Source: a virus. From it: a stretch of 64,000 nucleotides of DNA. Location of the stretch: IMG/VR virus record IMGVR_UViG_3300045988_118131; one strand, 5' to 3'. The position numbers were made by a program, and so were the translations under genes. Each line of letters opens with the position of its first letter. Position 1 is the stretch's first letter. The notes below the pieces were generated by a model that ran no database searches, was not told where the DNA came from, and was given only the letters and a program-made list of their open reading frames with translations. This document shows, piece after piece, positions 7,857 to 62,476 of the stretch.

Positions 7857-8284
7857 AAAAATTTGTATTTATATTGATTTTTTGTTTATCTACTTTATCG
7901 TTTTCACATGTAGAACCATCTAAAGAGATCTCTCCATTTATTGAGTCTTCTCCAACTTATGAAAGTGTCTATATGGTATGTAAGATGTATAATCTAGAGT
8001 GTCCAGAAATAGTGGTAGCTCAATCTGTATTAGAAACTGGTCATTATAAGTCTCAGCAGTGTTTGCAACATAATAACTTGTTTGGATTATATGATTCCAA
8101 GAATAAAAGATATTATAGATTTGACCACTGGACTCATTCGGTTTTAGCATATAAACAAAAAGTACAATATAGATACAAAGGAGGAGATTATTACGAATTT
8201 TTAAGAAAAATTGGTTATGCAGAGGATTCGTTATATGTAGAAAAGGTTAAGTTAATTCAAAAAAGGTTAGAGAATGATATTTAA
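7853..8284 (+). CDS. peptidoglycan hydrolase, N-acetylglucosaminidase (FlgJ C-terminal-like) family
   Basis: Signal-like N-terminus. VVAQSVLETGHYKSQ...HNNLFGL matches the glucosaminidase AQ..lETGwg...NNlFG motif. Confidence 0.65.
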   Translation: MKKFVFILIFCLSTLSFSHVEPSKEISPFIESSPTYESVYMVCKMYNLECPEIVVAQSVLETGHYKSQQCLQHNNLFGLYDSKNKRYYRFDHWTHSVLAYKQKVQYRYKGGDYYEFLRKIGYAEDSLYVEKVKLIQKRLENDI

Positions 8285-8432
8285 GTTTTTATTACCATTT
8301 TTAATGGTCATACTGTTTATTTATTATGTATGGCTGTTTCTTTCTATTACTGGAGTAGTGCCAAGAATTTCCAGTAGAGAATTTAAATTATACCGGATTT
8401 TTATTCCGTTTTACTATTTAATCTTCGAATAA
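8274..8432 (+). CDS. small membrane protein with two hydrophobic segments (52 aa), holin-like by topology only
   Basis: ATG 8274 overlaps the hydrolase stop; TAA at 8430-8432. Sequence MIFKFLLPFLMVILFIYYVWLFLSITGVV...IFIPFYYLIF. Confidence 0.3.
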   Translation: MIFKFLLPFLMVILFIYYVWLFLSITGVVPRISSREFKLYRIFIPFYYLIFE

Positions 8433-8462
8433 CTATTTACAAAATTTTAAATTATTTTATTT

Positions 8463-9668
8463 ATGAGAAAAGGTTTAATGGCAATTATTGCAGTGTTAGT
8501 AGTAGCATTCTTGTGTATGATTCCTAAATTGGGAGAAGACATGGATAAGAAGCAAATTGGTGTAAATCAAATTCCTTTTACTGGAACCTTGGAATACTGG
8601 ACAAATGGAGGATTTCAGTTTCAGAAAATGGGAACTGTAACCATTTATGACAAGACTTCCCAAATTTGGTTTAATGAATTGATTCGGAAGGATGATGGCA
8701 ATGTTACAGTTTCTCCGGAATTGGAAAATCCAGCTATGCCAATTACTTATAATGATAAGGGAAAAGGATTTGTATTAGGCTCAGTTCGAGTAGAAATGCC
8801 ATTGGAAGGTAAATATTTGGAACGTATTCAAACCCACTATGGCTCTCAAGAAAAACTTATTAGAGACTTAATTAAGCCTACCTTGAATAAAGTTATTATT
8901 GCTTGCGGTCCTTTGATGTCGTCACTTGAATCTGTTAGCGAAAAGAGAACTGATTTGATTGCATTAATTACTGATCAGCTCAATGCAGGTGTATATAAAA
9001 CACAAGTAAGAACTGTAGAAGTTTTGAATCCAATTACTAATGAAAAGCAGATTACTAAAATTGCAGAAGCTATTCCTGACAGTCTGTCTCCTAACGGAAT
9101 CAAAAGACAGGAAGCCTCTCCGTTTGCTTTCTATGGTTTAAAAGTATCACAATTATCTATTAGTGATCTTGAATATGAAAATGCTACTTTAGCTCAAATT
9201 TCAAAGCAAAGAGAAGCTGATATGTCTATTATTACAGCCAAATCTAAAGCCTTGGAAGCTATTCAGAGAACTATTCAAATTGAAGAAGAAGGTAAGGCTT
9301 CTGCAGCTCAAGCTAAATGGGAACAGGAAAAGATTAAGGCTGTAGAGGTAACGAAGGCACAGCAAGCATATGAAGTAGCCCAATTGCAAGCAAAAGAAGC
9401 TGCTGAAAAAGCTAAGAAAATTATCGAAGAAGGTAAAGCAGAAGCAGAAGCTAATCGCCTTAAAGTACAGGCTGGTTTGACTCCTCAAGAAGCAGCTGAA
9501 TGGCAGTATAAGACTACTGTAGGTGTAGCAGAAGCTCTTAGTAAATCTAATGTACGTTGGGTTCCTGAAATCATGATGAATGGTAATAATTCTGGAAGCG
9601 GTAGTGCAATGGATGCAGTAGGCTTGAATATGTTGATGGATGTTGCTAAGAAAATGAAAAAAGAGTAA
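8463..9668 (+). CDS. SPFH/band-7 (flotillin/prohibitin-like) membrane protein
   Basis: N-terminal TM helix, a central domain, then a long Ala/Glu/Lys coiled coil (AEKAKKIIEEGKAEAEANRLKVQAG) typical of SPFH proteins. Confidence 0.5.
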   Translation: MRKGLMAIIAVLVVAFLCMIPKLGEDMDKKQIGVNQIPFTGTLEYWTNGGFQFQKMGTVTIYDKTSQIWFNELIRKDDGNVTVSPELENPAMPITYNDKGKGFVLGSVRVEMPLEGKYLERIQTHYGSQEKLIRDLIKPTLNKVIIACGPLMSSLESVSEKRTDLIALITDQLNAGVYKTQVRTVEVLNPITNEKQITKIAEAIPDSLSPNGIKRQEASPFAFYGLKVSQLSISDLEYENATLAQISKQREADMSIITAKSKALEAIQRTIQIEEEGKASAAQAKWEQEKIKAVEVTKAQQAYEVAQLQAKEAAEKAKKIIEEGKAEAEANRLKVQAGLTPQEAAEWQYKTTVGVAEALSKSNVRWVPEIMMNGNNSGSGSAMDAVGLNMLMDVAKKMKKE

Positions 9669-9781: not shown

Positions 9782-9854
9782 TCTTAGGTAGCTTCAATTG
9801 GTTAAAGCCCTGGATTTTACTAGGAGATTGTGGGTTCGAATCCCACCCTAAGAA
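9782..9854 (+). tRNA. tRNA-like gene with a non-canonical (6-nt) anticodon loop; identity undetermined
   Basis: Acceptor TCTTAGG/CCTAAGA, D arm GCTT-CAATTGGTTA-AAGC, T arm GTGGG-TTCGAAT-CCCAC. The only good anticodon stem, CCTGG/CTAGG, leaves the loop ATTTTA. No encoded CCA. Confidence 0.5.
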
Positions 9855-9875
9855 CAAATAATTAAAAACAAAAAA

Positions 9876-17717: not shown

Positions 17718-18321
17718 GACTGATATTGAGAATGAATTGCTGATGTTGGAACGATATAATCTAACTCCTGAAGAGTGGTTAGTTACTAGACTTCTAATAT
17801 TGGCTAGCGTTGATGAAGGACATAAACAGTATTTTATTCGGTACTTGAACATTCCTCGAAAGAATACTTTGAGAGATGTATTAGTTAGCCTACAAGATAA
17901 ATCTATTATTTTAAAGTCTTACAAAATTCCAAATCCTGGAGAAAGATTTAATCCAGAAGATGTTGATTTAAATAAGAACTTTCTTAAAACTTTTTATAAA
18001 TGTTCCGGCATTTTAGGACAGGAACTATTTAATAATTATCCATATTGTATCGAAAGTGGAGGAAGAACTTATGTATTAAACAACATTACCAAAGGATATA
18101 AGGATATGGAGGAACTATATTATGATTATGGAAGAATTATTAAATTTAACCCAGACACTCATAAAGAGGTTATGGAGTTACTAAAATTTGGCAAGGAACA
18201 TAATCTTATATCTTATGGTATTTGTGAATTTATTAAATCTTATAAATGGTTAAATATAAAGAAAATGAAAGAAGATGGATCGTATGTAGGAAAAACTTTT
18301 GATAATATTACTGCTCTATAA
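17716..18321 (+). CDS. hypothetical protein upstream of the replicative helicase (loader/initiator candidate by position only)
   Basis: ORF track (TTG start; the first ATG is 9 codons in). Its stop abuts the helicase start. Confidence 0.5.
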   Translation: MTDIENELLMLERYNLTPEEWLVTRLLILASVDEGHKQYFIRYLNIPRKNTLRDVLVSLQDKSIILKSYKIPNPGERFNPEDVDLNKNFLKTFYKCSGILGQELFNNYPYCIESGGRTYVLNNITKGYKDMEELYYDYGRIIKFNPDTHKEVMELLKFGKEHNLISYGICEFIKSYKWLNIKKMKEDGSYVGKTFDNITAL

Positions 18322-19433
18322 TGGTTCTGGATAATTTATTATCTCAAATAGATAAGGGACGAGAGGGAAAGAACTGGGGCTTGTCTATGGGATTACCCAA
18401 ATTGGAACAGTATGTAGATGGAGTATCACAAGGTACTTATACTCTTCTATTTTCTGGATCTGGTGTTGGTAAAACCTCATTGGCATTATATGCTTATATT
18501 TATAGACCAATTATGGATAATTTGAATGATCCAGATCATTTTCATATTTTCTATATTAGTTTAGAAATGAAGGCTGAGGTTCTTTTAGCTAAATTACTCT
18601 CTACTTATATATTTGAAACATATAACAGAGAAATTTCCTATAAAGAGATGCTTTCCAAGACTAGAAACACTATATTATCCGACGAGGATTATGAACTTAT
18701 AAAAAAGTCTATTCCTTGGATGGAGAAAGTTATGTCTATGTTAACTATATGGGACAAATCTCTTAACTCAGTTAGCTTTTTCAAACTGATGAAAGATTTG
18801 GCTGATAAAAATGGGAAATTTTATGAGGAGCAAAATAGAAAATTCTATACTCCTGACAATCCAGATAAAGTTGTGTTAGTAGTAATAGACCATTTAGCGT
18901 TATCGCAACCCCAAACAGGAAATAGTCTTAAGAACGAAATGGATGCTATATCTAAGGTAGCTGTACAGTTTAGAAATAGATGTAACTTTAGTTTTTTAAT
19001 GATTATGCAAGCTAATAGAGAAGCAGCAAATGTTGAAAGAAGAAAGTTAGAACTGGTAGAGCCTCAACGTCAAGACGTAAAAGACTCAAGTTGTATGGAA
19101 GCTGATAGTGATATTATGATAGCTGTATTTAACCCGTTTCGAGAAAAACTTACCTCTTATAGAGGTTACAATATAAAAGCCTTAAAAGCTAAATTTAGAA
19201 GTATTATTTTACTAAAGAATAGATACGGAGATGGAGATATTTCTATAGGCTGTAACTTCTTTGGAAAATGTAATCTATGGAAAGAACTTCCTAAAGCTGA
19301 CCAAATCCAAGACTACGAAAAATTTACTGATATAAATACATATAAACAAACTAAAGATGAGGAGGAAATAGAAGATGTAAAAGAATTTAAATCAGATATG
19401 CCGTCAATAAAAAATATTGAAATTATATTATAA
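18321..19433 (+). CDS. DnaB-like replicative DNA helicase (RecA-fold C-terminal domain)
   Basis: Walker A FSGSGVGKTSLAL, Walker B VLVVIDHLAL, MQANRE, arginine-finger region KNRYGD. Confidence 0.75.
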   Translation: MVLDNLLSQIDKGREGKNWGLSMGLPKLEQYVDGVSQGTYTLLFSGSGVGKTSLALYAYIYRPIMDNLNDPDHFHIFYISLEMKAEVLLAKLLSTYIFETYNREISYKEMLSKTRNTILSDEDYELIKKSIPWMEKVMSMLTIWDKSLNSVSFFKLMKDLADKNGKFYEEQNRKFYTPDNPDKVVLVVIDHLALSQPQTGNSLKNEMDAISKVAVQFRNRCNFSFLMIMQANREAANVERRKLELVEPQRQDVKDSSCMEADSDIMIAVFNPFREKLTSYRGYNIKALKAKFRSIILLKNRYGDGDISIGCNFFGKCNLWKELPKADQIQDYEKFTDINTYKQTKDEEEIEDVKEFKSDMPSIKNIEIIL

Positions 19434-19787: not shown

Positions 19788-20690
19788 ATGAATAGAATTA
19801 ATTATGACCAAGAAAAAATTATAGAGCTTTATAATAAGGGCTATACAGATAGACAAATTGCAGAAACTTTAAACTATCCAGTTAATAATTTTGCTTCTTA
19901 TAGGAGGAAAAATTTAAAGCTTCCTCCTAATAAACCAAGGGAAACAGATATATTAACAGCTGACGAATTAGCTGTATTAATAGGAACTCTTTTAGGAGAT
20001 TCGTGTGTGCAGTATGTACATTCTAAATGTAAATATCCTTCACTGTCATTTACTCATTGCATTAAACAAAAAGAATACTTTTTAGTAAAATGCAAAAAAC
20101 TAGAAAAATTAATTTCATCATATAAAGAGTATAATTACGGAGAAAGAGCTACCTCTAAAGATAAGACGTTTCTCCATTGTACTGGTAAGAATATGAAATG
20201 CTTAGTGGATATTAGAAATGTCTTTTATCCTGATGGTATAAAAATTATACCAATAGAATTTCTAGAGAAACACATGACTAAAGAAAGTATTTACTACTTA
20301 ATGATGGATGATGGTAGTTATGATATACATACGAATAGCTACATATTAAATACACAATGTTTTACTAGAGAGAACTTAGAAAACTTTACTGAGTTTTTAA
20401 AAGTTAAGTTTGGTCTAGACTTTTCTGTAAAAAGTGATAATAGTCTTTATTTAAAACACTCATCTAATGAAAAGATGGTTGAAATACTACAAAAATATAA
20501 CATTTGTGATTCCATGAATTATAAGTGTTGTCTCAAAACTCCGTTAAACGGGGAAGTTCCAGATAATCTGGGTAATCCCGTGCTAAACCCTCAAGAAATT
20601 GAGGAAAATGCCGAACGACTAGAAGTGATGCCTAACACAAAAGGTGAGGCTATAAAATCTTCCACGAAAGCGGGGCACTACTTAAAGTAG
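19788..20690 (+). CDS. LAGLIDADG homing endonuclease with an N-terminal HTH
   Basis: Motifs LIGTLLGDSCV and YYLMMDDGSY. HTH-like YTDRQIAETLNYPVNNF. The C-terminal ~50 codons run through the ribozyme core sequence. Confidence 0.8.
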   Translation: MNRINYDQEKIIELYNKGYTDRQIAETLNYPVNNFASYRRKNLKLPPNKPRETDILTADELAVLIGTLLGDSCVQYVHSKCKYPSLSFTHCIKQKEYFLVKCKKLEKLISSYKEYNYGERATSKDKTFLHCTGKNMKCLVDIRNVFYPDGIKIIPIEFLEKHMTKESIYYLMMDDGSYDIHTNSYILNTQCFTRENLENFTEFLKVKFGLDFSVKSDNSLYLKHSSNEKMVEILQKYNICDSMNYKCCLKTPLNGEVPDNLGNPVLNPQEIEENAERLEVMPNTKGEAIKSSTKAGHYLK

Positions 20691-22690: not shown

Positions 22691-23695
22691 ATGCAAATAA
22701 AAATTCAGCCTACGAAAATTACTAAAGAATTAATCCTAAGCCATATATCAGAAGAGACTCTAATGGAGCATTATCTAGGAATACCTGTCAAAAAGGGGAT
22801 CTTTAGGTCCCCTTTGAGAACAGATAATAATCCTACTTGCAGCTTCGATAGAGATAAATATGGAAGACTAGTATTTAAAGATTTTAATGGGAGTTTTTAT
22901 GGCGATGCTTTTGAAGTAGTTAAAAGACTATACAATGTTCCCTATTATGAGGCTTTAAATATTATTGCTAACGATTTTGGGATTATTGAGATTCCCCGAC
23001 TAGTAAAACACCCCAAGATAATTGAGTATTCAAACACTCAATTCGAAGAATCAGGACCAAGTAACATCCAAATAGAAGTACAACCGTTTTCTGAACAAGA
23101 ACTAAAGTGGTGGGAATCATTTGGAATTACTCAAGAACTATTGAAAAAATATAATGTTTATTCATGCAAGAATGTTTTTTTAAATGGTTCGTACTTGACC
23201 TCTTCGTCAGAAACAGATTTCATCTTTGCTTACTACAGGGGTAGTATAGACGGAATAGATTATTTCAGAATATACTTTCCCATGAGAAAACACTTTAGAT
23301 TTTTATCTAATTGGACAGCAAAAATGATTCAAGGAGCCAAACAGCTTCCAAAAACTGGAGATTTTTTAGTAATCACCAAGAGTATGAAAGATGTAATGAC
23401 TCTGGCGAGTTTTGGTATAACGGCAATAGCCCCAAATTCAGAAACACTATTCCTTTCGGAAGAGCAATATGAGAAAGTTAAAAAACGGTTTAAACGTATA
23501 ATTCTTTTATATGACAATGATTTAGCTGGAATTAGTAATATGAACAAAATTCGTAAAAGTTTTAAAGATATTAGCTGTGTTTGGATTCCCAGAAAATATG
23601 CAAAAGATATAAGTGATTTTCGCAAAAAATACGGAGAAGAAAACACTAGAAAATTAATCAATAAAGCTAAACGAATTTTAAACATAAATGGCTAA
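22691..23695 (+). CDS. DNA primase (TOPRIM domain)
   Basis: TOPRIM-like FLVITKSMKDV and ILLYDNDLAG (DxD). N-terminal primase-like region. Confidence 0.6.
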   Translation: MQIKIQPTKITKELILSHISEETLMEHYLGIPVKKGIFRSPLRTDNNPTCSFDRDKYGRLVFKDFNGSFYGDAFEVVKRLYNVPYYEALNIIANDFGIIEIPRLVKHPKIIEYSNTQFEESGPSNIQIEVQPFSEQELKWWESFGITQELLKKYNVYSCKNVFLNGSYLTSSSETDFIFAYYRGSIDGIDYFRIYFPMRKHFRFLSNWTAKMIQGAKQLPKTGDFLVITKSMKDVMTLASFGITAIAPNSETLFLSEEQYEKVKKRFKRIILLYDNDLAGISNMNKIRKSFKDISCVWIPRKYAKDISDFRKKYGEENTRKLINKAKRILNING

Positions 23696-27905: not shown

Positions 27906-28460
27906 ATGGAAATCAATTTGAACTTTAAACGTGTCGATGTAAACGCTTTCACTTTAAAAGAAGCAGAAGAAATTTTAGCTGAAAAAGCAAACTTTGAAAA
28001 ATTTGCAAACGCAACTCAAGCATGGAAAAACGCTGGTAGTCCAATGCAGAATACAAAAGAATTTAAAGAATTTTGTGCAAATTACTTGGCTGAAAAGACT
28101 AAGAACAAACAAGGTTTAGGATGTGTTATTGTTTACGAAGCTGGAAAGGCTGATACCAGAGAACGTCCCTGGGAAATGAACGATGTTGTAAACGAACTCG
28201 GAAAACGTAAATATAAAACGACTTATCTAATTATTGATGAAGAAACTGGCAAGATTCTTGCTAAGACACAGGAAAACAAGGCTAAAGCTAAGGAATTGGC
28301 TAAGGAATTGTACACTAAGGGTGGTTACAGAGGAAAACTTACTTGTATTTATACTAAGGAAGTAGTTGAAGGTGAAAAAAGAGCATTTACAATGAAGTAT
28401 CAGGCATCTAAGAGTGCAAAAGAAGGATACTTTATCTTCTTCGGAATCGAACGTAACTAA
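27906..28460 (+). CDS. hypothetical Lys/Glu-rich protein, probably highly expressed
   Basis: Clean 184-aa ORF bracketed by tandem promoters and a strong terminator. No motif that I recognise. Confidence 0.65.
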   Translation: MEINLNFKRVDVNAFTLKEAEEILAEKANFEKFANATQAWKNAGSPMQNTKEFKEFCANYLAEKTKNKQGLGCVIVYEAGKADTRERPWEMNDVVNELGKRKYKTTYLIIDEETGKILAKTQENKAKAKELAKELYTKGGYRGKLTCIYTKEVVEGEKRAFTMKYQASKSAKEGYFIFFGIERN

Positions 28461-28500
28461 CCCCCCCCGAAGACTAAAAGTCGAGTATTAAACTTTAATA

Positions 28501-28537
28501 AAGTCTCCTTATTATATTATGAGGAGACTTTTTTTAT
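28501..28537 (+). terminator. rho-independent terminator
   Basis: AAGTCTCCT (28501-28509) and AGGAGACTT (28522-30) form a 9-bp stem followed by a T tract. Confidence 0.7.
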
Positions 28538-28551
28538 TTTGTAAAATTTCT

Positions 28552-29472
28552 ATGGATAGGTATGAATTTATATGAAAATCTGTACAAAAATTTGGATACA
28601 AATTTGATTATAGAGAGGTAGGAAAAATTAAAAATTCTAAATCAAAGGTAGTTTTAATATGCCCTATACATGGAGTGTTTATGCAAGAGGTCGGGAATCA
28701 TCTTCGTAGTGCTCATGGATGTACTGAATGTGGTAAGGAGGCAAGAGGGAAATCTAACAGGGATACTAAAGATTCCTGAATAATTAAAGCTATAAAAAGA
28801 CATGGAGACTTTTATAATTATAGTAAGGTTAGATATATAGACTGCTATACTCCAGTTACTATAATTTGTCCCATCCACGGAGAATTTCAACAAGTTCCTT
28901 ATTATCATACAAGTGAAAATGGTTGCCCTAAATGTGGAAATATTAAGAAAAATGCTAATAAAATATTAACAACTGAAGAATTTGTTGAAAAAGCTAAAAG
29001 TATTCACGGAACTACTTACAGTTATGATGCAGTAGAATATGAAACTACTGATAGTAAAGTTTGTATAATTTGTCCTATTCATGGTGAATTTTGACAAACT
29101 CCACATTCTCATTTGCAAGGACATGGATGTCCTTATTGTAATCATCTTTCTAAAGGTGAAGAGTACGTTAAAAATGTCCTAAACGAACTTGGAATAAATT
29201 ATATATGACAATATTGTATTAAAACTGATAAAAGACATTATAATATTGACTTTTACCTACCTGAATACAATTTAGCAATAGAGTATAATGGAGAGCAACA
29301 TTACAAGTTTTCTCCATATTTTCACAAAACAGAAGAAAACTTTATTAAACAAAAACAAAGGGATTCTGAAGTAAAAGATTTATTATATGCTAAGAATATT
29401 AAATTACATATTATAAGTTATAGAACTCCTTTTGAAAAAGTTAAAATAGATTTAGAAAAACTGTTAAAATAG
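28552..29472 (+). CDS. free-standing endonuclease-like ORF (three CPxHGxF..GCxxC zinc-ribbon repeats plus a Vsr/DUF559-like nuclease core) with four in-frame TGA codons; either recoded or a pseudogene
   Basis: My hand translation from ATG 28552 to TAG 29470-29472 gives 306 sense positions. No TAA or TAG in frame; TGA at 28573, 28777, 29092 and 29206; no TGG codon. Repeats CPIHGVF..GCTEC, CPIHGEF..GCPKC and CPIHGEF*..GCPYC. C-terminal NIDFYLPEYNLAIEYNGEQHY. Confidence 0.5.
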
Positions 29473-29509
29473 GGGAATTATCTGAACAAGGTAGTTCCCC
29501 TTATTTTTT
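29472..29509 (+). terminator. rho-independent terminator
   Basis: GGGGAA (29472-29477) and TTCCCC (29495-29500) form a stem followed by TTATTTTTT. Confidence 0.5.
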
Positions 29510-29582
29510 ATATATAGATAAAAAAGTAACATAACTAAATCGGAGAAATAACCTCCGAGTTCTAAATAAAATAAAACATTAT

Positions 29583-31187
29583 ATGAAATTATCAACTGTT
29601 GTTAAGTTCAGAAAAGAACTGGAATGTGTTAAAGAGTCAGGATTAACAATCGCGGAGTATTGTCAACAGAATAAAAAGAACAGATCGTGGTTTACTGAGC
29701 GTATCAAGAGAGTGCTAGATACTAAAGACTTGTATGTTGAAGAAACTGCACAAATTCTTGAGTTGTATTCTGAGCTTGTAGATAACAGAGGACGGGGAAG
29801 AGGCAAGGAATTTTACAAAAATCTGGCAGATTCTCTTTTAAATGGTAAGCCAGAGAAAATTATTTCGAAAGAAGAGAATGATGAAGAAGATAAAACTCAC
29901 GTAACTTATGTTAGAAATACATCTACTAATAAGATTGAGTCCTATGATGTTATAGTTTATGTTAGAGACTCTAAGCCCTTTAGAACAATCTTATCCAGAG
30001 AAGACGCTGAAGTATTGTTTGGTTTATATACCTATTATGGTGGTAATGTAACTGCTAGGAATGTAGCTAACGAGTTTCCTAAATTTACTCTTCCAGAGGT
30101 TAAAAAGCTATTTAGAGCATTCAAATTAACTAAGGATTCAGCTTGGTTCCCTCCACACTTAGGAGAAGAGTTAACAGAAGAGGAGCTTAGTCAGTATCGA
30201 ATGAATCTTAAGGAAAGAGCTGCATTTAAGTATGCTGATGCTAGACAAGAAAGAGACTTCAAGAATACCATTAACAAAATGGCTTCGGAAATCAATAAAT
30301 TGAAGAATTTTAATGGACAGTTTGAAGAAGTTCTTGCTAAGTTTGTAAATGAAAATAATATAGTTACAAAACAGTTTCCTAGAGTTGTTTCTAGTGATAA
30401 GACTGTTATGATATTTCTGGCGGATATGCACATTGGAGCTAAAGTGAATGATCAAGCTTTGTTTGACAACCACTATGATATGGAGGTAGTATATAAAAGA
30501 ATGGATCAAATTATTTCTTATTTCTCTAAGCTTGACCCATTTAAAAGGATTGTGGTAGTTAATGTCGGAGATGCTTTGGATGGAATGGATAACCAAACTG
30601 CAAGGCGAGATCATTTCATTCCTCAGAACATGAATAATTTTGAGCAACTTAACAATTATGTAGCTGCAATAAAGTATTTGTTCCATAATATGATTGTAAA
30701 TAAGATGGCTTCTGAATATTCTTATATTTCTGTTCCTTGCGGAAATCATGATGGAGCATTTGGATACGCTGCGGCACAATTGGCAGCTAGTGTTCTTAAA
30801 CTTAACTATCCCCAAATTGAAACTTGTGTAGAAAGCAAATTTTATTTACGGTATGATGTAGGGGAATTCTCATATCTAGTTTGTCATGGTAAAGACGAAC
30901 AGTTTATGAAAAATGGATTTAAGATCAATTTGGATGATAATACTGAATTAAAGATTAATCAGTATATAGACTCTTTAGATGGTTTGAAACCTAACATAAA
31001 TGTAGTTAGTGGGGACTTACACAACGAATCTATGAGTAGAGGAAAGAAATTTAAATATTGGAAAGTGGGATCTTTCTTTGGCTCTTCCGAATATTGTATG
31101 TATGGTTGGGGTAATACTCCAGCTCATGTAAATTATCACATAATTTCAGATGATATTTTAATGAACGGAACTGTAGAACTAAAATGA
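29583..31187 (+). CDS. calcineurin-like metallophosphoesterase-domain protein (SbcD/Mre11-like motif set) with an N-terminal HTH-like region
   Basis: FLADMHIG, VGDALDG, CGNHDG and VCHGKD in the C-terminal half. Confidence 0.55.
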   Translation: MKLSTVVKFRKELECVKESGLTIAEYCQQNKKNRSWFTERIKRVLDTKDLYVEETAQILELYSELVDNRGRGRGKEFYKNLADSLLNGKPEKIISKEENDEEDKTHVTYVRNTSTNKIESYDVIVYVRDSKPFRTILSREDAEVLFGLYTYYGGNVTARNVANEFPKFTLPEVKKLFRAFKLTKDSAWFPPHLGEELTEEELSQYRMNLKERAAFKYADARQERDFKNTINKMASEINKLKNFNGQFEEVLAKFVNENNIVTKQFPRVVSSDKTVMIFLADMHIGAKVNDQALFDNHYDMEVVYKRMDQIISYFSKLDPFKRIVVVNVGDALDGMDNQTARRDHFIPQNMNNFEQLNNYVAAIKYLFHNMIVNKMASEYSYISVPCGNHDGAFGYAAAQLAASVLKLNYPQIETCVESKFYLRYDVGEFSYLVCHGKDEQFMKNGFKINLDDNTELKINQYIDSLDGLKPNINVVSGDLHNESMSRGKKFKYWKVGSFFGSSEYCMYGWGNTPAHVNYHIISDDILMNGTVELK

Positions 31188-32467: not shown

Positions 32468-34894
32468 ATGAATAATGCGTTAAATGAATTTATTTTTCAG
32501 TCAAAGTATTCTAGATATAACCCTTCTTTAGGTAGAAAGGAAACTTGGGAAGAGTCTGTGGATAGAATTTCTAATATGCATATCCAGCATTTAACTGAAA
32601 ATTATCCACAAGCCTTAAATAATGCTGAATTTGCTAGTGATTACCTTGAAGCAATAGAAGCATATAAAGAAAAGAAGGTATTTGGTTCTCAGCGTGGTCT
32701 TCAATTTGGAGGTACTCCTATTTTAAGAAAGCATTGCAGATTATTTAATTGTAGTGCTACTTATGCTGATAGACTAGAAGTATTCAAACAGGCTGAATGG
32801 GTTATGCTATGTGGTTGTGGAGTAGGTATATCTGTAGAAAAACAACATGTTGACAAGCTGCCATCCATGAATAATGTTCTTCGTTCTGATACTGAAGATT
32901 GGATAATTCCAGATACAATAGAAGGTTGGGCATTAGCAATTCAACAAATTATTAATTATTACTTCGTTGCAGGCACTAAATATCCAAAATTTGACTATTC
33001 TCAAATTAGACCTAAGGGCGCGTTAATTACTGGAGGATTTGTAGCTCCTGGACCTAAAGGGCTAAGGAAAACTATTCAGAAAATAGATGAATTGTTAAAG
33101 CAAGTCCATAAAACTACAAAGAAATTGTCCCCTCTTAATGTAGCTGATATTCTATGTTTTGAAGCTGATTCTGTACTATCTGGAGGTTTAAGACGAAGTG
33201 CTATGATTATTTTATTTGATCCAGATGATCAAGAAATGACTCAGGCTAAGACTGGAAACTGGTTTATTGAAAATCCTCAAAGGGGAAGGTTTAATGCGTC
33301 GGCTGTTTTGCAAAGAGGCGAGACTAATAAAGATGTCTTTATGTCTTTGTTTAATTCTACCAGACAGTTTGGAGAACCAGGATTTCTCTGGAGATCTAAC
33401 AAAGGATTGGTAGTTAATCCATGTTGTGAAATAGGGATGTACCCTGTAGACCCTACTACAGGACAAACTGGATGGCAGTTCTGTAATCTAATTTCAATAT
33501 CTGGAAAGGATGTCCATACAGAGGAAGAGTTTTATAATATATGCAAACATGCGGCAACTATTGGGACTATACAAGCATCATATATGAGTTTCCCATTTCT
33601 GGGAGAAGCAACTGAAAACATTATTAAAAATGATCCTTTAATCGGAGTCTCTATTGCCGGAGTTATGTGCTCTCCTAATATTCTTTTAAATGGTAATGTT
33701 CTAGAAAAAGGGGCTGAAATAGTTAAACAGCAAAATGCTAAAATAGCTGAAGTACTGAATATAAAACCTTCATCCAGATGTACATGTATAAAGCCAGACG
33801 GAAATACAAGTGCTATGTCTGGTAATACTCCAGGGTGTCATGGGGACCATGCTAGACATTATATAAGAAGAGTACAAGTTAATAAAGACGAGGAAGCTGG
33901 ACAAATTTATCAAAAAGCAAATCCTAAAGCTGTACTGGAATCTGTCTGGTCTAACAATAGAACCGACAACTGTATTATGTTTGCTATTAGTGCAGAACCT
34001 AATGCTTTAACCAAAAAGGATTTACTTGGAATAAAACAACTTGCAGTTGTTAAAGAACTCCAAAATCATTGGGTAAGGGCTGGTAAAGTAAATCCAAATG
34101 ATACTATTGAAAACAATGTGTCTAATACTGTCAATGTTCCGGAAGATCAGTGGGAAGAAGTGTCGGAATATGTATGGGAAAACCAGAATGATTTAGCAGG
34201 AGTTTCTTTCATTGCCGAAACTGGAGATCTAGATTATGTTCAGCCTGCATATTCAGAAGTATTAATGCCTCAGGAACTTTTGGATAGATACGGAGAAGGC
34301 GTTATATTTGCAAGCGGACTTATTGTAGATTCTATTGATATATTTGGAGACTTATGGAATGCCTGCGAAACATTTAGAGGTAGAGGAGAGTCTATTTTCA
34401 CTTCATTAAAGGATGCAGAGGAGTTTATAGAGGAGTTTACCATTGCCAAGATAGAGGACTATCTAGACAAGCCATTAAAAGAGTGGAACGAGGTTAAAGC
34501 TAAACAATATAGCAGATGGATTGATTTGCTTGTCCAAATTGGATATTCAGAAGAATTTGCAGAACAATTAGTTGATAATGATGTTCCAATTCCAACTACT
34601 GAAATTCAAAAATATTTGGATAAACAATTGTTTGGAAGAGTGCCTAATTTGGCAGCCAAGAGAGACTTAATCAGACGAATGAAGAAGTACTCTGATAAAT
34701 ATTATGAAGGAAATGATACTCTTATGATTAATGCCTTGAAACACGTCCAGTTGTATCATGATTGGTGTGATATTACTAAATCATATAAGCCAATTGACTG
34801 GAAAGAAGTTAAATGGAAAAATGTATTAATTGAAGCTGATACTACAGGGGCAGTAGCCTGCAATGGTGGAGCTTGTGAAGTAACTAGAATTTAA
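32468..34894 (+). CDS. nrdJ: class II (adenosylcobalamin-dependent) ribonucleotide reductase, monomeric RTPR-like
   Basis: N-terminal QSKYSRYNPSLGRKETWEESVDRI resembles the L. leichmannii RTPR N-terminus. Active-site NPCCEIGM. C-terminal redox pair CNGGACEV. Confidence 0.8.
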   Translation: MNNALNEFIFQSKYSRYNPSLGRKETWEESVDRISNMHIQHLTENYPQALNNAEFASDYLEAIEAYKEKKVFGSQRGLQFGGTPILRKHCRLFNCSATYADRLEVFKQAEWVMLCGCGVGISVEKQHVDKLPSMNNVLRSDTEDWIIPDTIEGWALAIQQIINYYFVAGTKYPKFDYSQIRPKGALITGGFVAPGPKGLRKTIQKIDELLKQVHKTTKKLSPLNVADILCFEADSVLSGGLRRSAMIILFDPDDQEMTQAKTGNWFIENPQRGRFNASAVLQRGETNKDVFMSLFNSTRQFGEPGFLWRSNKGLVVNPCCEIGMYPVDPTTGQTGWQFCNLISISGKDVHTEEEFYNICKHAATIGTIQASYMSFPFLGEATENIIKNDPLIGVSIAGVMCSPNILLNGNVLEKGAEIVKQQNAKIAEVLNIKPSSRCTCIKPDGNTSAMSGNTPGCHGDHARHYIRRVQVNKDEEAGQIYQKANPKAVLESVWSNNRTDNCIMFAISAEPNALTKKDLLGIKQLAVVKELQNHWVRAGKVNPNDTIENNVSNTVNVPEDQWEEVSEYVWENQNDLAGVSFIAETGDLDYVQPAYSEVLMPQELLDRYGEGVIFASGLIVDSIDIFGDLWNACETFRGRGESIFTSLKDAEEFIEEFTIAKIEDYLDKPLKEWNEVKAKQYSRWIDLLVQIGYSEEFAEQLVDNDVPIPTTEIQKYLDKQLFGRVPNLAAKRDLIRRMKKYSDKYYEGNDTLMINALKHVQLYHDWCDITKSYKPIDWKEVKWKNVLIEADTTGAVACNGGACEVTRI

Positions 34895-47827: not shown

Positions 47828-49404
47828 TTGATCTACTTAGTAAGTAATCAAGCTGAGTTGTTTAAATCTGACAGGTATTCTAAAATTTCTGTAGAAAAAT
47901 CTTTAGAAATTATGGATTCCTGGAAGGTTGTACAACTAGATACTGAAACCGAAGGATTAGACGTATATACTAAGAGATTATTAACCGTGCAGTTTGGTAC
48001 AAGGGATATTCAAATAGTTGTAGATTGTACTAGTGTAGATATTTTACAGTATAAATCTTTCTTAGAATCCAATAGAGTGTTTCTGGGGTGGAACTTACTG
48101 TTTGACCTCAAATTCTTATATCATCATAATATATATCCTAATAATATATATGACGGTATGTTAGCTGAGAAGCTAATTTGGTTGGGATATCCTGCAGGTA
48201 TGAAGGGTATGAGCTTGAAAGATACTGCTTTTAGATATTTAGGCATAGACATAGACAAAACCATTCGAGGTAAAATTAACCAAACTGGATTAACTGAAGA
48301 TGTTATTGTTTATGCTGCAGGAGATGTTCAACCCCTAGAAGACATTAAAGATGCTCAAGAAAAGGAAATACAAGCTCAAGAATTAGAAACTGCTGTATCA
48401 TTCGAAAACGAATTTGTAAAATGCTTAGCTTATATTGAGTATTGTGGTGTTAGATTAGATGTTCCCAGATGGAAGGCTAAAATGGAGAATGATTTAGAGA
48501 GATTAAATAAAGCCGAAAAAGCCTTAAATGATTGGGTAGTAAGCTATTATAAAGAACATTTACATGATCCTGATTCTACTAATACCTTAGAAGTTGAAGT
48601 AGATTTTTGTTTAGAGGAAAGAGTAGGCTCTAAAGTAATAAAACATGCTATAGAGTATAAAACATATACTCCAATAGAAGCTCCTAGAACAATAACTGGA
48701 CCTGATTGTGTATCATATTTGAAGCAGAAACTTAAGGTAGTATTCCCTTTTGTCAAAATAAATCTTCAGGGAGACTTATTTTCCGGATTTGATACAGAAC
48801 CTAAGTGTTGTATAAATTGGTCTAGCTCTAAGCAGGTTATTCCCTTGTTTGAACTACTAGGATTTAATCTTATAACATTTGATAAGGTTACTAAGAAGAA
48901 AAAGAAGTCTGTAGATGCTAAGATTATTAAGGCACAGTTAGATGTGTCCCCAATAGCAGCATTATATTTAGACTATCAAGGTGCTTCAAAAGTGGTATCC
49001 ACATATGGACAAAATTGGTTAAATGCAATTAACCCTGTTACTGGTAGAATTCACGCTAATTTTTATCAGTTAGGAGCAGACACAGCTAGATTGTCCTGCG
49101 GAGGTGGTACTGCTAATGTCAACGTTCAAAACTTACCGCACGATCCAGAAACTAGAGCGTGTTTTATTCCAGAAGATGGTAACGATTGGATCTCTGCGGA
49201 TTATCAAGGTCAGGAAAGTCGCATTATTGCATCAGTTTCCAATGATACAGCTATGTTAGACCTGTTTATTAACGGTTGTGGAGATGTCCATTCTCTAGTA
49301 GCTAAAATGGCATACTCACATGTAATTGGAGATACTCCCATCGAGGAAATTAAAGAAAAATTTCCTCAGTATCGTCAAGAAGCTAAAGGAATTGAGTTCG
49401 CAGT
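47828..49404 (+). CDS. polA: family A DNA polymerase with 3'-5' exonuclease domain, exon 1
   Basis: Exo I VQLDTETEGL, Exo II GWNLLFDLKFL, Exo III YAAGDV, pol motif A ISADYQGQESRIIA, and the first half of motif B RQEAKGIEFA. TTG start in the track. Confidence 0.8.
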
Positions 49405-49474
49405 GAGCCTACTTATTTAACATTAATTAACATAAATTTGCCATAAAACAATTCGCAATTAATCAAAAATTTAT

Positions 49475-49482
49475 TATCTTTG
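49475..49482 (+). promoter_or_regulatory. -7 promoter box (TATCTTTG) inside the intron, upstream of the homing endonuclease ORF
   Basis: Matches TAnnTTTG, 23 nt upstream of ATG 49505. Confidence 0.4.
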
Positions 49483-49504
49483 TGCGTAATTTAAAAATAT
49501 AATT

Positions 49505-50326
49505 ATGAACGAGAGAGAATTGGAAATTGCAGAATTGTATAAACAAGGCGTGTCCTTAAAAGAAATTTGTGCTAAGCATCATTGTAGCACAAATACAATT
49601 AGTAAGATAATAGATAAATTTAACATACCTAGGAGAACTAAAAGAAAGTCTAATAAAGATTTTAGTAAATTTTTTGATTTAAATGCAAAAGAAACTCAAT
49701 ATTGGATTGGATACATCTGTGCTGACGGAAGTATTCAATACGATGAGAAAAATAGGGTATATAAGGTATCTTTACATAGTAAAGAAGAAGAGCCTATAAA
49801 CAATTTCATAAAATATTTTGGCGAAGATACAGTCAGTCTACATAAACGTAAAACTGGAATATTAGAAGCATATATAAATTCCAAAGAACTTTGCGAATAT
49901 TTTATCAATATTTTAAATATTACTCCTAGAAAATCTTTGACATTAAATCCTAATATAGAATTTACTACTAATTTTATCTTGGGCTATTTTGATGGGGATG
50001 GATGTATCAGAAACAGTTCTGATACTCAAACTAGATATGAGTGTAATATAACCTGTGGAAATAGAGAATTTTTAGAAAAAATTAAATCTATACTAGACTC
50101 TGAAGGTATTTACTCTATTATATACAAACATACTGATTGTGACGCTTATAAAATAAGAATTGATAGAAAAGAAGAATCTAGAAAATTTTATAAGTTCCTT
50201 TATAAGGATAAAGTAGTATGTTTATCTAGAAAGTTAAATAATTTTGCTGCCCTCTTTGGAAACTTAGAGGATACATCATCGAGTGAATTGCTGGAATCTG
50301 TAGGAGAATCAGCAGCCAAGCATTAA
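49505..50326 (+). CDS. LAGLIDADG homing endonuclease with an N-terminal HTH
   Basis: WIGYICADGSI and ILGYFDGDGCI. HTH-like VSLKEICAKHHCSTNTISKII. Confidence 0.85.
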   Translation: MNERELEIAELYKQGVSLKEICAKHHCSTNTISKIIDKFNIPRRTKRKSNKDFSKFFDLNAKETQYWIGYICADGSIQYDEKNRVYKVSLHSKEEEPINNFIKYFGEDTVSLHKRKTGILEAYINSKELCEYFINILNITPRKSLTLNPNIEFTTNFILGYFDGDGCIRNSSDTQTRYECNITCGNREFLEKIKSILDSEGIYSIIYKHTDCDAYKIRIDRKEESRKFYKFLYKDKVVCLSRKLNNFAALFGNLEDTSSSELLESVGESAAKH

Positions 50327-50498
50327 AACTAAAAAGTTAATGAAGGTTCAACGACTAACGATTGACACTTCTTTGAAGAATATAATATCGACACGAGCGC
50401 TCGACACCTAAATCTTTTACAGACATGGTGAAGATATAGTCTAGCCTATATGGTAACATATAGAGTCTCGGATAAAGAGCCGAGAGTTAATACAAGCG

Positions 50499-51111
50499 AA
50501 ATTACGGAGGAGACGCTAATACTATTATGAACAATAAAGGTATTCCTCTTTCAGAAGCTAAGGCTATTTATGAGAACTTTATGAAAGGTTTTCCTGGAGT
50601 AGCTAAATATCAAGACTATTGTAGAAGAGAAGTCATGAGGAAAGGATATATTCTATTAAATCCAGTCACCAAACACAGAGCACATATTTATGACTTTGAG
50701 GAATTAGATAGAATACAGAAAAAGTTCAATGATCCAGAATTTTGGGATTACTACAGAGAAATGAAGAAATACGATCCTAGTTGTGAAACTGTAAAGGATG
50801 TACAAAATTATTTTAGAAGAAAATCAGCCTCTGAAAAACAATCTATTAATTATAGAATTCAAAATAGAGGAGCTATGATGTTTAAACTGGCTTCAATAAA
50901 GCTCTTCAACTATTTGAAGAAGAATAATCTACTAGGAGTTGTAAAGTATTGTATTCCAGTCCATGACGAGATCAACTTAGAGTGTCCTAAAGCAATGTCA
51001 GAGGAAATATCTAAGATATTAGTAAAATGTATGGAACAAGGAGCAAAACCATTTTGCACTAGACTTCCTTTAGGAGCAGATGTGTCAGTAGGAGAACATT
51101 GGATTCATTAA
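50499..51111 (+). CDS. polA: family A DNA polymerase, exon 2
   Basis: The frame is open from 50491. NYGG completes motif B. Motif C is IPVHDEINLE. Confidence 0.8.
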
Positions 51112-58688: not shown

Positions 58689-58844
58689 ATGGCATTCTTA
58701 TATTATATGGCACTCGTACTTCTGATAATATTTGCAATAATTGGAGTGATGCCATTTATACTTTTTATTATAATATTATTAAAATTAGGAATACATATAA
58801 AATTACCAAATGAACGCATTAGTAATAGTAGATCCTCAAAATGA
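58689..58844 (+). CDS. small membrane protein (51 aa), speculative
   Basis: ATG 58689 to TGA 58842-58844. Very hydrophobic. Overlaps the pncA start by 35 nt. Confidence 0.25.
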   Translation: MAFLYYMALVLLIIFAIIGVMPFILFIIILLKLGIHIKLPNERISNSRSSK

Positions 58845-59391
58845 TTTTATAAACGGATCATTAGCAGTTCCGGGAGCTGAAAAAGCAATTAATAATACAA
58901 TAGAATTTATAAAGGAACACAAAGAAGATCTTGCTTATATAGCAATAACGGCAGATTGGCATCCTTATGACCATTGTTCGTTTAAAGAATATGGAGGTAC
59001 GTGGGAATCCCACTGTGTTATGTATAGTGCTGGAGCAAGTATTTATCAACCACTTCTGGAAGTTATTAAAGAGACTGGAATTTTTTGTAAAGTCTGGAAT
59101 AAAGGAACATATTCTGATAGAGAAGAATACAGCATTTTTGACAGAGAAGAAGGACGAGAGTTTCTTGACGAACTTAACGATAGAACTACAATAGATGCAA
59201 GTAAAGAAGAGTACGGAGAAATTTATGTAGCAGGATTAGCTGGAGACTTTTGTGTATTCCACACAGTAAAAGATTTAGTTGATGAAGGATTAGGAGATTG
59301 GATGCATATTCTTTTAGATGGTGTAGCCTCTATTGATGGTGGAGTTAAATTGAAAAATCTTCTGAAGGAATGTGGTATATCATCCCTCTAA
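58810..59391 (+). CDS. pncA: nicotinamidase/pyrazinamidase (isochorismatase family)
   Basis: Aligns by eye with E. coli PncA: LVIVDPQNDF, ADWHPYDHCSF, WESHCVMYSAGA, KGTYSDREEYSIF, and GLAGDFCV (catalytic Cys). Confidence 0.8.
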   Translation: MNALVIVDPQNDFINGSLAVPGAEKAINNTIEFIKEHKEDLAYIAITADWHPYDHCSFKEYGGTWESHCVMYSAGASIYQPLLEVIKETGIFCKVWNKGTYSDREEYSIFDREEGREFLDELNDRTTIDASKEEYGEIYVAGLAGDFCVFHTVKDLVDEGLGDWMHILLDGVASIDGGVKLKNLLKECGISSL

Positions 59392-59558
59392 TAATTTGCC
59401 TACTAGGAGGAATGTTTATTCCTAATATAGTAGATAAGAATGATTGTGAGGAAAGACTAATATATTCTATATTAGTTATTCTCCCACTCGTTAATATAGT
59501 AATTTCAGTTGTATGCATAGTATATACTATTGCTTATATTTTAGAATTAACAGAATAG
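59370..59558 (+). CDS. small membrane protein
   Basis: ORF track. Two hydrophobic helices. Confidence 0.4.
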   Translation: MWYIIPLIICLLGGMFIPNIVDKNDCEERLIYSILVILPLVNIVISVVCIVYTIAYILELTE

Positions 59559-59561
59559 ACA

Positions 59562-60734: not shown

Positions 60735-60983
60735 ATGAAAGTAACTGTTAAACAATTAATAAGAGACGACAGTTTCCAAGCTGAAAGACTACTAATTGAT
60801 GGTAAAGAAGTAATGAGTGTGTGCGACCTATGGGAGTGTCCAGAAGATGCTATTTTAGGAAGGGATTTAAATTCCATGGAAGAAGTAGCCGATCTTATGT
60901 ACCTGGCATATCAAGCAGGTAAAAAGGGGGAAGTATGGGATAGAGAAACTATTGAATACGAAGAAGAAGAATTTTATAATTAA
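60735..60983 (+). CDS. hypothetical acidic protein
   Basis: ORF track. Confidence 0.45.
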   Translation: MKVTVKQLIRDDSFQAERLLIDGKEVMSVCDLWECPEDAILGRDLNSMEEVADLMYLAYQAGKKGEVWDRETIEYEEEEFYN

Positions 60984-60990
60984 ATTTATT

Positions 60991-61941: not shown

Positions 61942-61963
61942 CGTACTTATATAAGTAATATAA

Positions 61964-62476
61964 ATGAAAGTAATAAATTTATTTGCTGGACCTGGAAGCG
62001 GTAAGTCTACAACCTGTGCTGGAGTATTTAGTAAATTAAAATTAGCAGGAATAAATTGTGAAATGGCATTAGAGTATGCCAAGGATAAAGTGTGGGAACA
62101 ATCCTTCCACACTTTAGACAATCAAATCTATATATTTGGAAAACAGTTACATAGGCTATGGAGATTAAAGGATCAGGTAGATGTAGTAATTACTGATTCT
62201 CCGTTATTATTTTCTATAATTTACGATAAAACTTGTAATGAGAAATTTGGAGCTCTTGTTTTGGATCAATTTAATCAATTTGAAAATATCAACTACTTCA
62301 TAACGAGAGGTAACACATATAATCCAAAGGGAAGAATGCAAACTCTTGAAGAATCTATGGATTTAGACTGTAAAATAGCATCATTATTGGAGAGTAATAA
62401 TATTCCTTTCAATTTTGTTAATAAAATGGATGCAGTTGATATAATTTGTGAAAACACTTTAAAATTTGATTTATGA
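61964..62476 (+). CDS. P-loop NTPase (AAA_28/NadR-kinase-like; possible ribosylnicotinamide or nucleotide kinase)
   Basis: Walker A FAGPGSGKSTT, EYAKD, Walker B-like VVITDSP. 170 aa. Embedded between nadE and nadD. Confidence 0.4.
   Translation: MKVINLFAGPGSGKSTTCAGVFSKLKLAGINCEMALEYAKDKVWEQSFHTLDNQIYIFGKQLHRLWRLKDQVDVVITDSPLLFSIIYDKTCNEKFGALVLDQFNQFENINYFITRGNTYNPKGRMQTLEESMDLDCKIASLLESNNIPFNFVNKMDAVDIICENTLKFDL

Follow-up and report, generated by a model that had tools for sequence, protein, structure and literature searches.

A mobile homing endonuclease gene with in-frame TGA codons, probably read as tryptophan, in the replication block of a crAss-like phage

Within the replication genes of a 64,000-nucleotide stretch of viral DNA (IMG/VR record IMGVR_UViG_3300045988_118131; the window, below, is this whole stretch), one open reading frame (ORF) for a homing endonuclease carries four in-frame TGA codons among neighbors that use TGA as a stop. 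The locus raises the question whether this is a dead gene, a recent import from a recoded organism, or a working gene whose TGA codons are translated. We consider it very probable, from comparison with homologues and related phages, that the gene is alive and that its TGAs are read as tryptophan (Trp) by the recoding system of the phage itself. Four observations lead to this reading, one of three alternatives offered in a preliminary description made from the letters alone: TGG codons in an orthologue, a ratio of nonsynonymous to synonymous divergence (omega) of 0.07 between alleles, the interchange of TGA and TGG between strains, and a tRNA with anticodon UCA, tRNA(UCA), in the lineage. A gene that seems dead under the standard code would thus be a living one.

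An open frame interrupted by TGA alone

The frame runs on the plus strand from ATG at 28552 to TAG at 29470–29472 and gives a 306-residue product from its 306 codons if TGA is Trp. TGA codons at 28573, 28777, 29092, and 29206, corresponding to codons 8, 76, 181, and 219, are the sole interruptions, and the frame contains no TGG, no TAA, and no internal TAG; these properties were re-derived exactly as the preliminary description had reported them. The gene occurs in alleles A (the window, L027, and L001, relatives being referred to by L numbers), B (L028 and L031), and C (proteins P0012 and P0135, in L002 and L044), and its features are as follows.

28552..29472, plus strand: homing endonuclease gene, allele A; encodes a Vsr/I-Bth0305I-like nuclease domain preceded by three DUF723 treble-clef zinc-finger repeats
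28573..28575, plus strand: in-frame TGA, codon 8; TGA in allele B, TGG in allele C
28777..28779, plus strand: in-frame TGA, codon 76; TGA in allele B, TGG in allele C; family column aromatic (Phe)
29092..29094, plus strand: in-frame TGA, codon 181, in HGEF[W]Q; TGA in allele B, TGG in allele C; family consensus Trp
29206..29208, plus strand: in-frame TGA, codon 219; in allele A only, the codon being AGG in B and AGA in C

The two remaining frames of 28552–29472 contain 19 and 32 TAA and TAG codons, and the openness of the flagged frame is therefore far above chance. When the whole window was scanned under code 4, this ORF alone showed internal TGAs between stretches of coding length. The remaining 89 plus-strand ORFs of at least 80 amino acids contain 263 TGG codons and no internal TGA; 12 of the 89 terminate at TGA, several in ATGA overlaps, in agreement with what had been noticed for the neighboring genes. 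The start at 28552 is supported by the coinciding start of allele C (a TTG at the same position) and by the low confidence of the alternative, as the code-4 gene call adds 11 N-terminal residues that are modeled with a predicted local distance difference test (pLDDT) score below 50. At the other end, the next in-frame TAG lies 16 codons beyond the terminal one. Codon usage, a comparison that the preliminary description had proposed, sets the gene apart: the GC content at third codon positions (GC3) is 0.15 versus 0.24 ± 0.035 in neighboring genes, and the codon-usage distance is ~3 standard deviations (SD) above that of similar-sized genes.

Read with TGA as Trp, the translation contains the three CPIHGxF...GCxxC repeats and the DFYLP...IEYNGEQH core that had been recognized by eye. 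Pfam DUF723 matched three times (4e-14), with a further match to DUF4379, a treble-clef zinc finger, and PHROGs 559 (5.5e-56), 681 (1.4e-39), and 9084 (8.7e-16), all annotated as endonuclease or homing endonuclease, were matched as well; a sequence search of the PDB with the endonuclease gave no match and NCBIfam nothing useful. Public data hold more than 7,500 homologues. An AlphaFold model of P0001, a protein 98% identical to the window copy, was built from 43 homologues and reached a mean pLDDT of 92. Foldseek aligned its C-terminal domain with Escherichia coli Vsr (1cw0, 1vsr), the catalytic domain of I-Bth0305I (3r3p_B), and PvuRts1I, with a probability of 1.00 but modest E-values (3e-3 to 6e-3) and template modeling (TM) scores on the target of 0.53–0.67; 3r3p_B gave 0.67 at 28% identity to the modeled domain. 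Residues D233, E244, G247, Q249, and H250 fall in nearly invariant columns of the 43 homologues. Judged by this model, the gene encodes a free-standing homing endonuclease with a predicted nuclease domain whose catalytic residues appear intact. A DUF723/Vsr-like paralogue of 305 amino acids (L009 5087–6004, plus strand) is inserted before the nicotinate phosphoribosyltransferase (NAPRTase) gene in one relative and is open throughout in the standard code, its frame free of TGA, so not every member of this family in the lineage is recoded.

We searched for homologues with X at the four TGA sites, and two of the proteins found were informative. P0001 has the same four TGAs in its DNA and had been called under code 4. 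P0012 (66% identical, 306 amino acids) had been called under the standard code, and its DNA (L002, L003) has TGG at codons 8, 76, and 181 and AGA at codon 219; this allele C occupies the syntenic site, between a 183-amino-acid gene and the exonuclease gene, in a phage with flanks ~70% identical in DNA to the window. Among 119 homologues, column 181 is W in 59, and column 76 is F in 109 and W in 4, whereas columns 8 and 219 are variable, so that the expectation of Trp or aromatic residues at the TGA columns held for two of them and failed for the other two. From this comparison, the TGAs at codons 8, 76, and 181 are ancestral TGG positions, and that at codon 219 is a derived AGA>TGA (Arg-to-Trp) change in a variable linker column.

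Between alleles A and B, 91 of 921 nucleotides differ. Allele A has the four TGAs; allele B keeps those at codons 8, 76, and 181 and has AGG at codon 219 and a new TGG at codon 132. By the Nei–Gojobori method, synonymous divergence (dS) between them is 0.52 and nonsynonymous divergence (dN) 0.036, giving an omega of 0.069, and omega is similarly low in each segment delimited by the TGAs (0 for codons 9–75, 0.08 for 77–180, 0.09 for 182–218, and 0.05 for 220–306). The low values overall and after each TGA indicate strong purifying selection along the full ORF while it was bearing TGAs.

Such selection on TGA-bearing alleles argues decisively against a pseudogene in which the Trp codons happened to mutate from TGG to TGA, the third alternative of the preliminary description, and we consider that explanation extremely improbable. 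It would account for the four standard-code stops, the first as early as codon 8, for a 1-nt deletion in the copy of L022, and for the 3 nonsynonymous and 1 synonymous differences between the window and L001. It does not sit with the omega of 0.07 over 91 differences between alleles sharing three TGAs, nor with the presence of TGA alone among the stops: 127 of 166 single-base routes to a stop give TAA or TAG, and yet neither codon is found, and the copies of the window, L027, L028, L031, and L001 are free of frameshifts. Decay would also have had to turn all three ancestral Trp codons, and just one other codon, into TGA, in a cassette that moved recently between genomes and in a lineage whose essential structural genes have as many as 10 TGAs in frame. 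The early judgment that random decay was unlikely is thus borne out by the selection analysis.

TGA codons and a candidate suppressor tRNA in the phage lineage

Proteins of the window occur in more than 1,200 blocks of a public collection, and contigs with exact window proteins are 171–178 kb long, within the 145–192 kb expected of Zeta-group genomes. Their gene architecture and size place the source phage, probably, among the gut Zeta-group crAss-like phages (Crassvirales); the reading covered all but ~23% of the relative's genome, the remainder presumably including the genes for the terminase large subunit (TerL), the major capsid protein (MCP), and the portal. In Zeta crAss-like phages, reassignment of TGA to Trp is known and affects chiefly the late genes (PMC7886860; PMC12386605), and a block-wise dual coding structure has been described with Mgcod (bioRxiv 10.1101/2022.06.29.495998). 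We read the genes beyond the window from relatives that are 90–99% identical where they overlap the window or one another, the late region coming from an IMG/VR genome of the same lineage that is ~90% identical over its overlap with the window end.

Immediately beyond the window end lies a minus-strand gene of 1537 codons; five relatives have two TGAs in its frame, and a sixth (L007), with a protein 95% identical, has TGG at both places. The giant ORFs of 2785, 3097, 961, and 1537 codons have 2–3 TGAs each versus 4–25 TGGs, and together with ORFs of 1319 and 938 codons they span 2–10 TGAs per gene in close relatives. Examples from the structural block include genes with TGA/TGG counts of 10/7, 8/11, 4/8, 4/0, 3/3, and 3/0, and several late genes encode Trp by TGA alone (4/0, 3/0, 1/0, and 1/0). 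The protein with 10 TGAs and 7 TGGs (1319 amino acids) matches Pfam crAss_MUZ (2e-18; 66.4 bits against a cut-off of 27) and crAss_MUZ_C. By block, Trp is encoded as follows.

Structural block (relatives, our tally): TGA 38, TGG 61, TGA share ~38%
Transcription block (relatives): TGA ~9–10, TGG 66, TGA share ~12%
Replication block (window, endonuclease left out): TGA 0, TGG 263, TGA share 0%

The difference between early and late genes, their timing being inferred from gene function, has a Fisher P value of ~1e-24. The claim of the preliminary description that the genome otherwise stops at TGA therefore holds for the window and fails for the lineage, where dozens of late genes contain the codon in frame; the endonuclease gene looked like a lone exception because the view covered the replication block only. 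A 64-kb view of a dual-coded phage can in this way present a recoded gene as a solitary anomaly, and the search for further in-frame TGAs in late genes that the same description had suggested was indeed productive. In the early and nucleotide-metabolism blocks of the relatives, the sole other TGA-bearing genes seen were endonuclease genes: a GIY-YIG ORF in a sister genome (L009 11500–12276, plus strand; 1 TGA, 8 TGGs) and a LAGLIDADG ORF (L007 1562–2434, plus strand; 1 TGA, in AYY*IGFILADGS, and 3 TGGs).

We compared two strains at the 39 sites with TGA in at least one of them and found 16 sites with TGA in both, 21 with TGA and TGG, and 2 of other kinds. As 21 of the 23 variable sites are TGA/TGG, the two codons behave as synonymous in the lineage. 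The complete lack of sense TGA in early genes, along with their use of TGA as a stop, points to a host on the standard code and to a switch during infection. A host using code 4 was ruled out by the 0 sense TGAs against 263 early Trp codons and by the ATGA overlaps.

A tRNA with anticodon UCA, another feature that the preliminary description had recommended looking for, was found by ARAGORN outside the window in three relatives (L107 3710–3805, minus strand; identical in L108 4202–4297 and L112 1280–1375). In a relative, it lies ~17 kb upstream of the first window position, in a minus-strand cluster recovered by a metagenome scan and composed of tRNA-Asn, a tRNA with anticodon CUA, tRNA-Thr, and the 96-nt tRNA(UCA). 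Over the tRNA block, L107 (OGMN01000019.1, 178 kb) and L010 are 99.4–99.6% identical, and L010 matches the window at 98.4% where they overlap. The tRNA(UCA) is unusual in shape: its anticodon stem has 6 bp, its T stem 4 bp, and its variable arm is long. With these it combines A1–U72, G73, and the Trp-like anticodon loop CUUCAAA. In Rfam, the tRNA-Sec model scores highest (34 bits against a threshold of 47 bits), and at gathering thresholds no family reports it, the tRNA and tRNA-Sec models included.

This shape leaves room for the decoding of TGA as Ser, Sec, or Gly instead of Trp, an explanation that the G73 and the subthreshold resemblance to tRNA-Sec would favor. We nevertheless consider it very improbable: of the 23 variable sites, 21 pair TGA with TGG and none pairs it with a Ser, Cys, or Gly codon, TGA occupies the family-consensus Trp of HGEFWQ, and up to 10 TGAs per gene rule out Sec insertion dependent on a selenocysteine insertion sequence (SECIS). 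The anticodon loop, A1–U72, and G73 moreover resemble those of the tRNA-Trp(CCA) of the phage. Taken with the orthologous TGGs and the selection on the ORF, the interchange of codons and the tRNA(UCA) favor Trp.

Other tRNA genes were considered for the same role. The main tRNA block just upstream of the window, with ~23 tRNAs including tRNA-Trp(CCA), contains no UCA anticodon, and none was found in the late region read in relatives; three Rfam tRNA matches missed by ARAGORN have Val, Ile-like, and Tyr anticodons. In the tRNA-Trp(CCA), whose anticodon stem is 5 bp long, A12·A23 of the D stem and G7·A66 are mismatched; a reading of UGA by this tRNA in the manner of the Hirsh suppressor was considered and made unnecessary by the discovery of the tRNA(UCA). 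The window itself contains a tRNA-like gene at 9782–9855 (plus strand; Rfam tRNA, 42.9 bits) whose anticodon loop, AUUUUA, has 6 nt on a stem of 5 bp; ARAGORN assigns it an anticodon of two bases. Every relative examined has kept this gene, one of them with a G·U to A–U change that preserves the stem, and it was ruled out as a UGA suppressor, having no UCA and a discriminator A.

Two further RNA genes of the region deserve mention. The tRNA with anticodon CUA (L107 2827–2899, minus strand), in the same cluster as the tRNA(UCA), is of the amber-suppressor type, and TAG seems to be still a stop despite it, as long late ORFs are intact with TAG as their stop and the endonuclease ORF also ends in TAG; phage Lera presents the same puzzle of a tRNA(CUA) without amber recoding (PMC12386605). 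A transfer-messenger RNA (tmRNA) gene lies ~1.4–1.9 kb upstream of window position 1 (L010 7966–8506, plus strand; L013 7424–7963; L015 7980–8512). It is a full-length RF00023 match of ~540 nt at 79–80 bits (E ~1e-28), with no call by ARAGORN, and might serve to rescue ribosomes running off host mRNAs under TGA suppression.

The mobile cassette and its expression

The endonuclease gene is part of an insertion, which we delimited by comparing empty and filled sites in ten genomes fetched by the exact upstream 184-amino-acid protein. The features of the site are as follows.

27906..28460, plus strand: upstream flanking gene, 184 amino acids; no match to any family; the cassette follows its stop codon directly
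28461..29471, plus strand: inserted mobile cassette of ~1.0 kb, from empty versus filled sites in 10 genomes; boundaries good to ~20 nt
28500..28540, plus strand: terminator-like hairpin (28500–28531) and T-run; absent from empty sites; 12 nt before the start codon
29471..29511, plus strand: terminator hairpin (29471–29501) and T-run; directly after the upstream 184-amino-acid gene in empty sites
29583..31187, plus strand: downstream flanking gene, 534 amino acids, exonuclease-like (PHROG 284/704); its stop is TGA, and the next gene starts at 31189

The site is filled in four of the ten genomes and empty in six, with flanks 98.6–99.8% identical to the window except for the downstream flank of L031 (81%). 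Alleles A and B are ~10% divergent despite near-identical flanks, and the allele A cassette is 99.6% identical in L001, whose flanks, the downstream gene included, are far more diverged. The polymorphism in occupancy and a divergence that does not follow the flanks indicate that the cassette is mobile.

Genomes without the endonuclease have the 20 nt TAACAAATTAACGTTTTAAA where the cassette stands, so that an empty site consists of the upstream stop codon, these 20 nt, and then the hairpin GGGGAATTATCTGAACAAGGTAGTTCCCC with its T-run. This layout reverses the assignment of terminators in the preliminary description, which gave the hairpin after the ORF to the endonuclease and the one before it to the upstream gene. 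The terminator at 29471–29511 is the ancestral one of the 184-amino-acid gene, now 3′ of the cassette, and the final G of the cassette's TAG stop comes from its stem; the hairpin at 28500–28540 belongs to the inserted cassette, where it would shield the endonuclease ORF from transcription reading through from the upstream gene. The left edge of the cassette, immediately 3′ of the upstream TAA, is a run of eight Cs (28461–28468), unusual at 32% GC, that may be a junction or recognition feature.

Mobility also bears on the second of the early alternatives, a recent arrival from another organism or phage with full TGA recoding, by which the gene would be undecodable in its present host and not yet decayed. 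The low GC3 (0.15 versus 0.24), the codon-usage distance ~3 SD above similar-sized genes, and the horizontal movement of the cassette are what such an import would show. The resident lineage, however, decodes TGA as Trp and has a tRNA(UCA), leaving the gene decodable in place; alleles A and B have diverged to a dS of ~0.5 under purifying selection in the same phage species and at the same site; and the syntenic allele C in a distant Zeta phage speaks for long residence at the locus. We therefore regard import as very unlikely. What survives of the alternative is movement of the cassette among recoded Zeta phages, for which no foreign donor is needed.

On the reading of TGA as Trp, the phage would use two codes, the standard one in its early and replication genes and one with TGA for Trp in its transcription-block and structural genes, with late TGA decoding by the phage-encoded tRNA(UCA). 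The endonuclease ORF would be written in the late code, every Trp codon of allele A being TGA. Before the switch, a host ribosome should halt after seven residues, at codon 8; activity of the suppressor tRNA would then make synthesis of all 306 residues possible. During co-infection, the enzyme could then cut genomes without the endonuclease, a candidate target being the empty site ...CGTAACTAATAACAAATTAACGTTTTAAAGGGGAATTATC..., after which the cassette would be copied between the 184-amino-acid gene and its terminator. We see it as an even call whether the TGAs act as an adaptive gate for late expression. The late-only timing, its adaptive nature, the cleavage target, and the synthetase charging the tRNA are all points that we infer.

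Several observations weigh against this account. The window's own molecule ends before the late genes and the tRNA(UCA), both of which we know from close relatives, and the tRNA-Sec-like shape, long variable arm, and G73 of that tRNA ordinarily point to seryl-tRNA synthetase over tryptophanyl-tRNA synthetase. The TGA at codon 219 of allele A could in principle be a genuine truncation; selection 3′ of codon 219 is inseparable for the A lineage, in which the window and L001 differ by the 3 nonsynonymous changes and 1 synonymous change given above. The deletion in the allele B copy of L022 (position ~5420, relative to L028) frameshifts the last ~50 codons and may be a homopolymer assembly error or the mark of a decaying copy. 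As for the gate, the two LAGLIDADG endonuclease genes of the window (19788–20690 and 49505–50326) have no TGA, and with a GC3 as low as 0.15, mutation pressure alone could push TGG to TGA once TGA is tolerated.

The last points lead to a further explanation, by which the TGAs are translated as Trp and the all-TGA state is a neutral by-product in an AT-rich, late-expressed selfish gene. Several late genes likewise use TGA alone for Trp, and at the 38% TGA frequency of late genes, three TGAs out of three have a P value of only ~0.05. The surrounding block, by contrast, has TGG at 263 of 263 other Trp codons; the only early and nucleotide-metabolism genes with TGA in relatives are again endonuclease genes, of the GIY-YIG (L009) and LAGLIDADG (L007) types; and the same bias is statistically significant for an endonuclease family in the unrelated Agate phages (10.1101/2021.08.26.457843). 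Neutrality is in our view possible but not the better guess.

Other genes of the window and comparison with known systems

Other window genes matched Toprim, DnaB_C, ResIII/Helicase_C, AAA, DNA_pol_A, ribonucleotide reductase (RNR), and Thy1 families. The window has a group I intron and three endonuclease genes, and the relatives have four giant ORFs. The mobile elements other than the cassette, and the polymerase gene that houses two of them, are listed here.

19788–20690, plus strand: LAGLIDADG_2 endonuclease gene (1.3e-25) with neither TGG nor TGA, between a DnaB-like helicase gene (18321–19433) and a Toprim primase gene (22691–23695)
47828–51111, plus strand: split family A DNA polymerase gene; N-terminal part 47828–49420, C-terminal part 50527–51111 (Pfam DNA_pol_A)
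49505–50326, plus strand: LAGLIDADG endonuclease ORF inside the split polymerase gene
50226–50463, plus strand: group I intron core inside the split polymerase gene (Rfam, 83 bits)

Downstream of the locus, otherwise near-identical genomes differ in their reductase (L023 and L025 7572–8555 versus L024, L026, L029, and L030 ~7953–8555). The alternatives are an RNR_Alpha/RNR-II-type protein of 808 amino acids, as in the window at 32468–34894, and an ATP-cone/NrdD-type anaerobic reductase of 714 amino acids; their occurrence at one position appears to be an in situ swap of ribonucleotide reductase class. At ~58810–63592 (plus strand), the window has a run of NAD-related genes, for an isochorismatase/nicotinamidase-like protein, NAPRTase, NAD synthase, AAA_28, a CTP_transf_like nucleotidyltransferase, and Nudix, with coordinates assigned by matching gene sizes and order to precomputed Pfam matches. 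The run continues past the window end with SIR2 and a Tad3-family protein (L004 10766–13436). By their domain content, these genes look like a full NAD salvage route, possibly a counter to NAD-depleting defenses.

A megablast of the locus against 50,697 GenBank phage records gave no match, and tblastn with a 668-amino-acid window protein and a giant late protein gave distant matches only (at most 49% and 23% identity, respectively). PHROGs had no family for five large late-region proteins, those of the four giant ORFs and an adjoining 628-codon gene.

The opal recoding of Zeta phages and the preference of an endonuclease for TGA among early genes are both already published. What the locus adds would be a second, independent case of a late-code homing endonuclease in an early block, in another clade, from another nuclease family, and free-standing, which strengthens the idea that selfish elements exploit a code switch for timing their expression. 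For annotation, it implies that endonuclease genes in the standard-code blocks of crAss-like phages need a check under code 4. The tRNA-Sec-shaped tRNA(UCA) is a concrete candidate for the suppressors that go unreported by tRNA-finding pipelines in code-4 phages and, if truly so, a type-II-shaped tRNA read as Trp poses the question of how. Our broadest proposal is tentative, and we hold it to be possible but less likely than not: that the suppressor of this very abundant lineage is this noncanonical tRNA of tRNA-Sec or allo-tRNA shape, that such tRNAs, if general, could explain the "missing" Sup-TCA of most code-4 crAss-like phages, and that selfish early-block endonucleases (DUF723/Vsr-like, GIY-YIG, and LAGLIDADG) use the switch as a late gate.

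The closest known system is the dual coding of Zeta crAss-like phages (Yutin et al. 2021, PMC7886860; Lera/Echekvirus and relatives, PMC12386605). Shared with it are a genome of ~172–178 kb at ~32% GC, a sizable block of tRNA genes, numerous introns and endonuclease genes, PolA, the muzzle protein, and giant genes in the transcription block. The use of TGA for Trp is likewise confined to late genes, with the replication block keeping to the standard code, and both Sup-TCA and Sup-CTA tRNAs are present with opal recoding alone evident. Here, unlike there, the recoded gene is a single-gene island in the standard-code replication block, and the candidate suppressor is a 96-nt, tRNA-Sec-shaped, subthreshold molecule, whereas several published relatives are listed without a detectable suppressor.

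Borges et al. (bioRxiv 10.1101/2021.08.26.457843; later Nat Microbiol 2022) reported three gene families that favor TGA over TGG in Agate phages with TGA recoding. The endonuclease of a group I intron inserted in an early gene is among them, and its delay until late infection has been proposed. The preference for TGA among early genes and the proposed late gating are alike in the present case. The clades differ (Zeta crAss-like, ~175 kb, here versus Agate, ~127 kb), as do the genes: the Agate endonuclease is intron-borne, and ours is free-standing, intergenic, and of another endonuclease family. This case also adds allele-level dN/dS and the evidence of empty sites.

With I-Bth0305I (EDxHD/Vsr-like; 3r3p) and Vsr (1vsr, 1cw0), the enzyme shares its predicted fold and the D...E-x-x-G-x-Q-H constellation; its DNA-binding part consists of the three DUF723 zinc-finger repeats and not of the N-terminal domain of I-Bth0305I.

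The arrangement as a whole recalls an intergenic cassette with presence/absence polymorphism in another group of phages. T-even phages have free-standing homing endonucleases, the seg and mob genes, and their I-TevI is translated late only, an RNA hairpin concealing its ribosome-binding site in early transcripts. A post-transcriptional restriction to late infection is likewise what we propose here; in T4 the block is a hairpin, and in the present phage it would be the identity of a stop codon.

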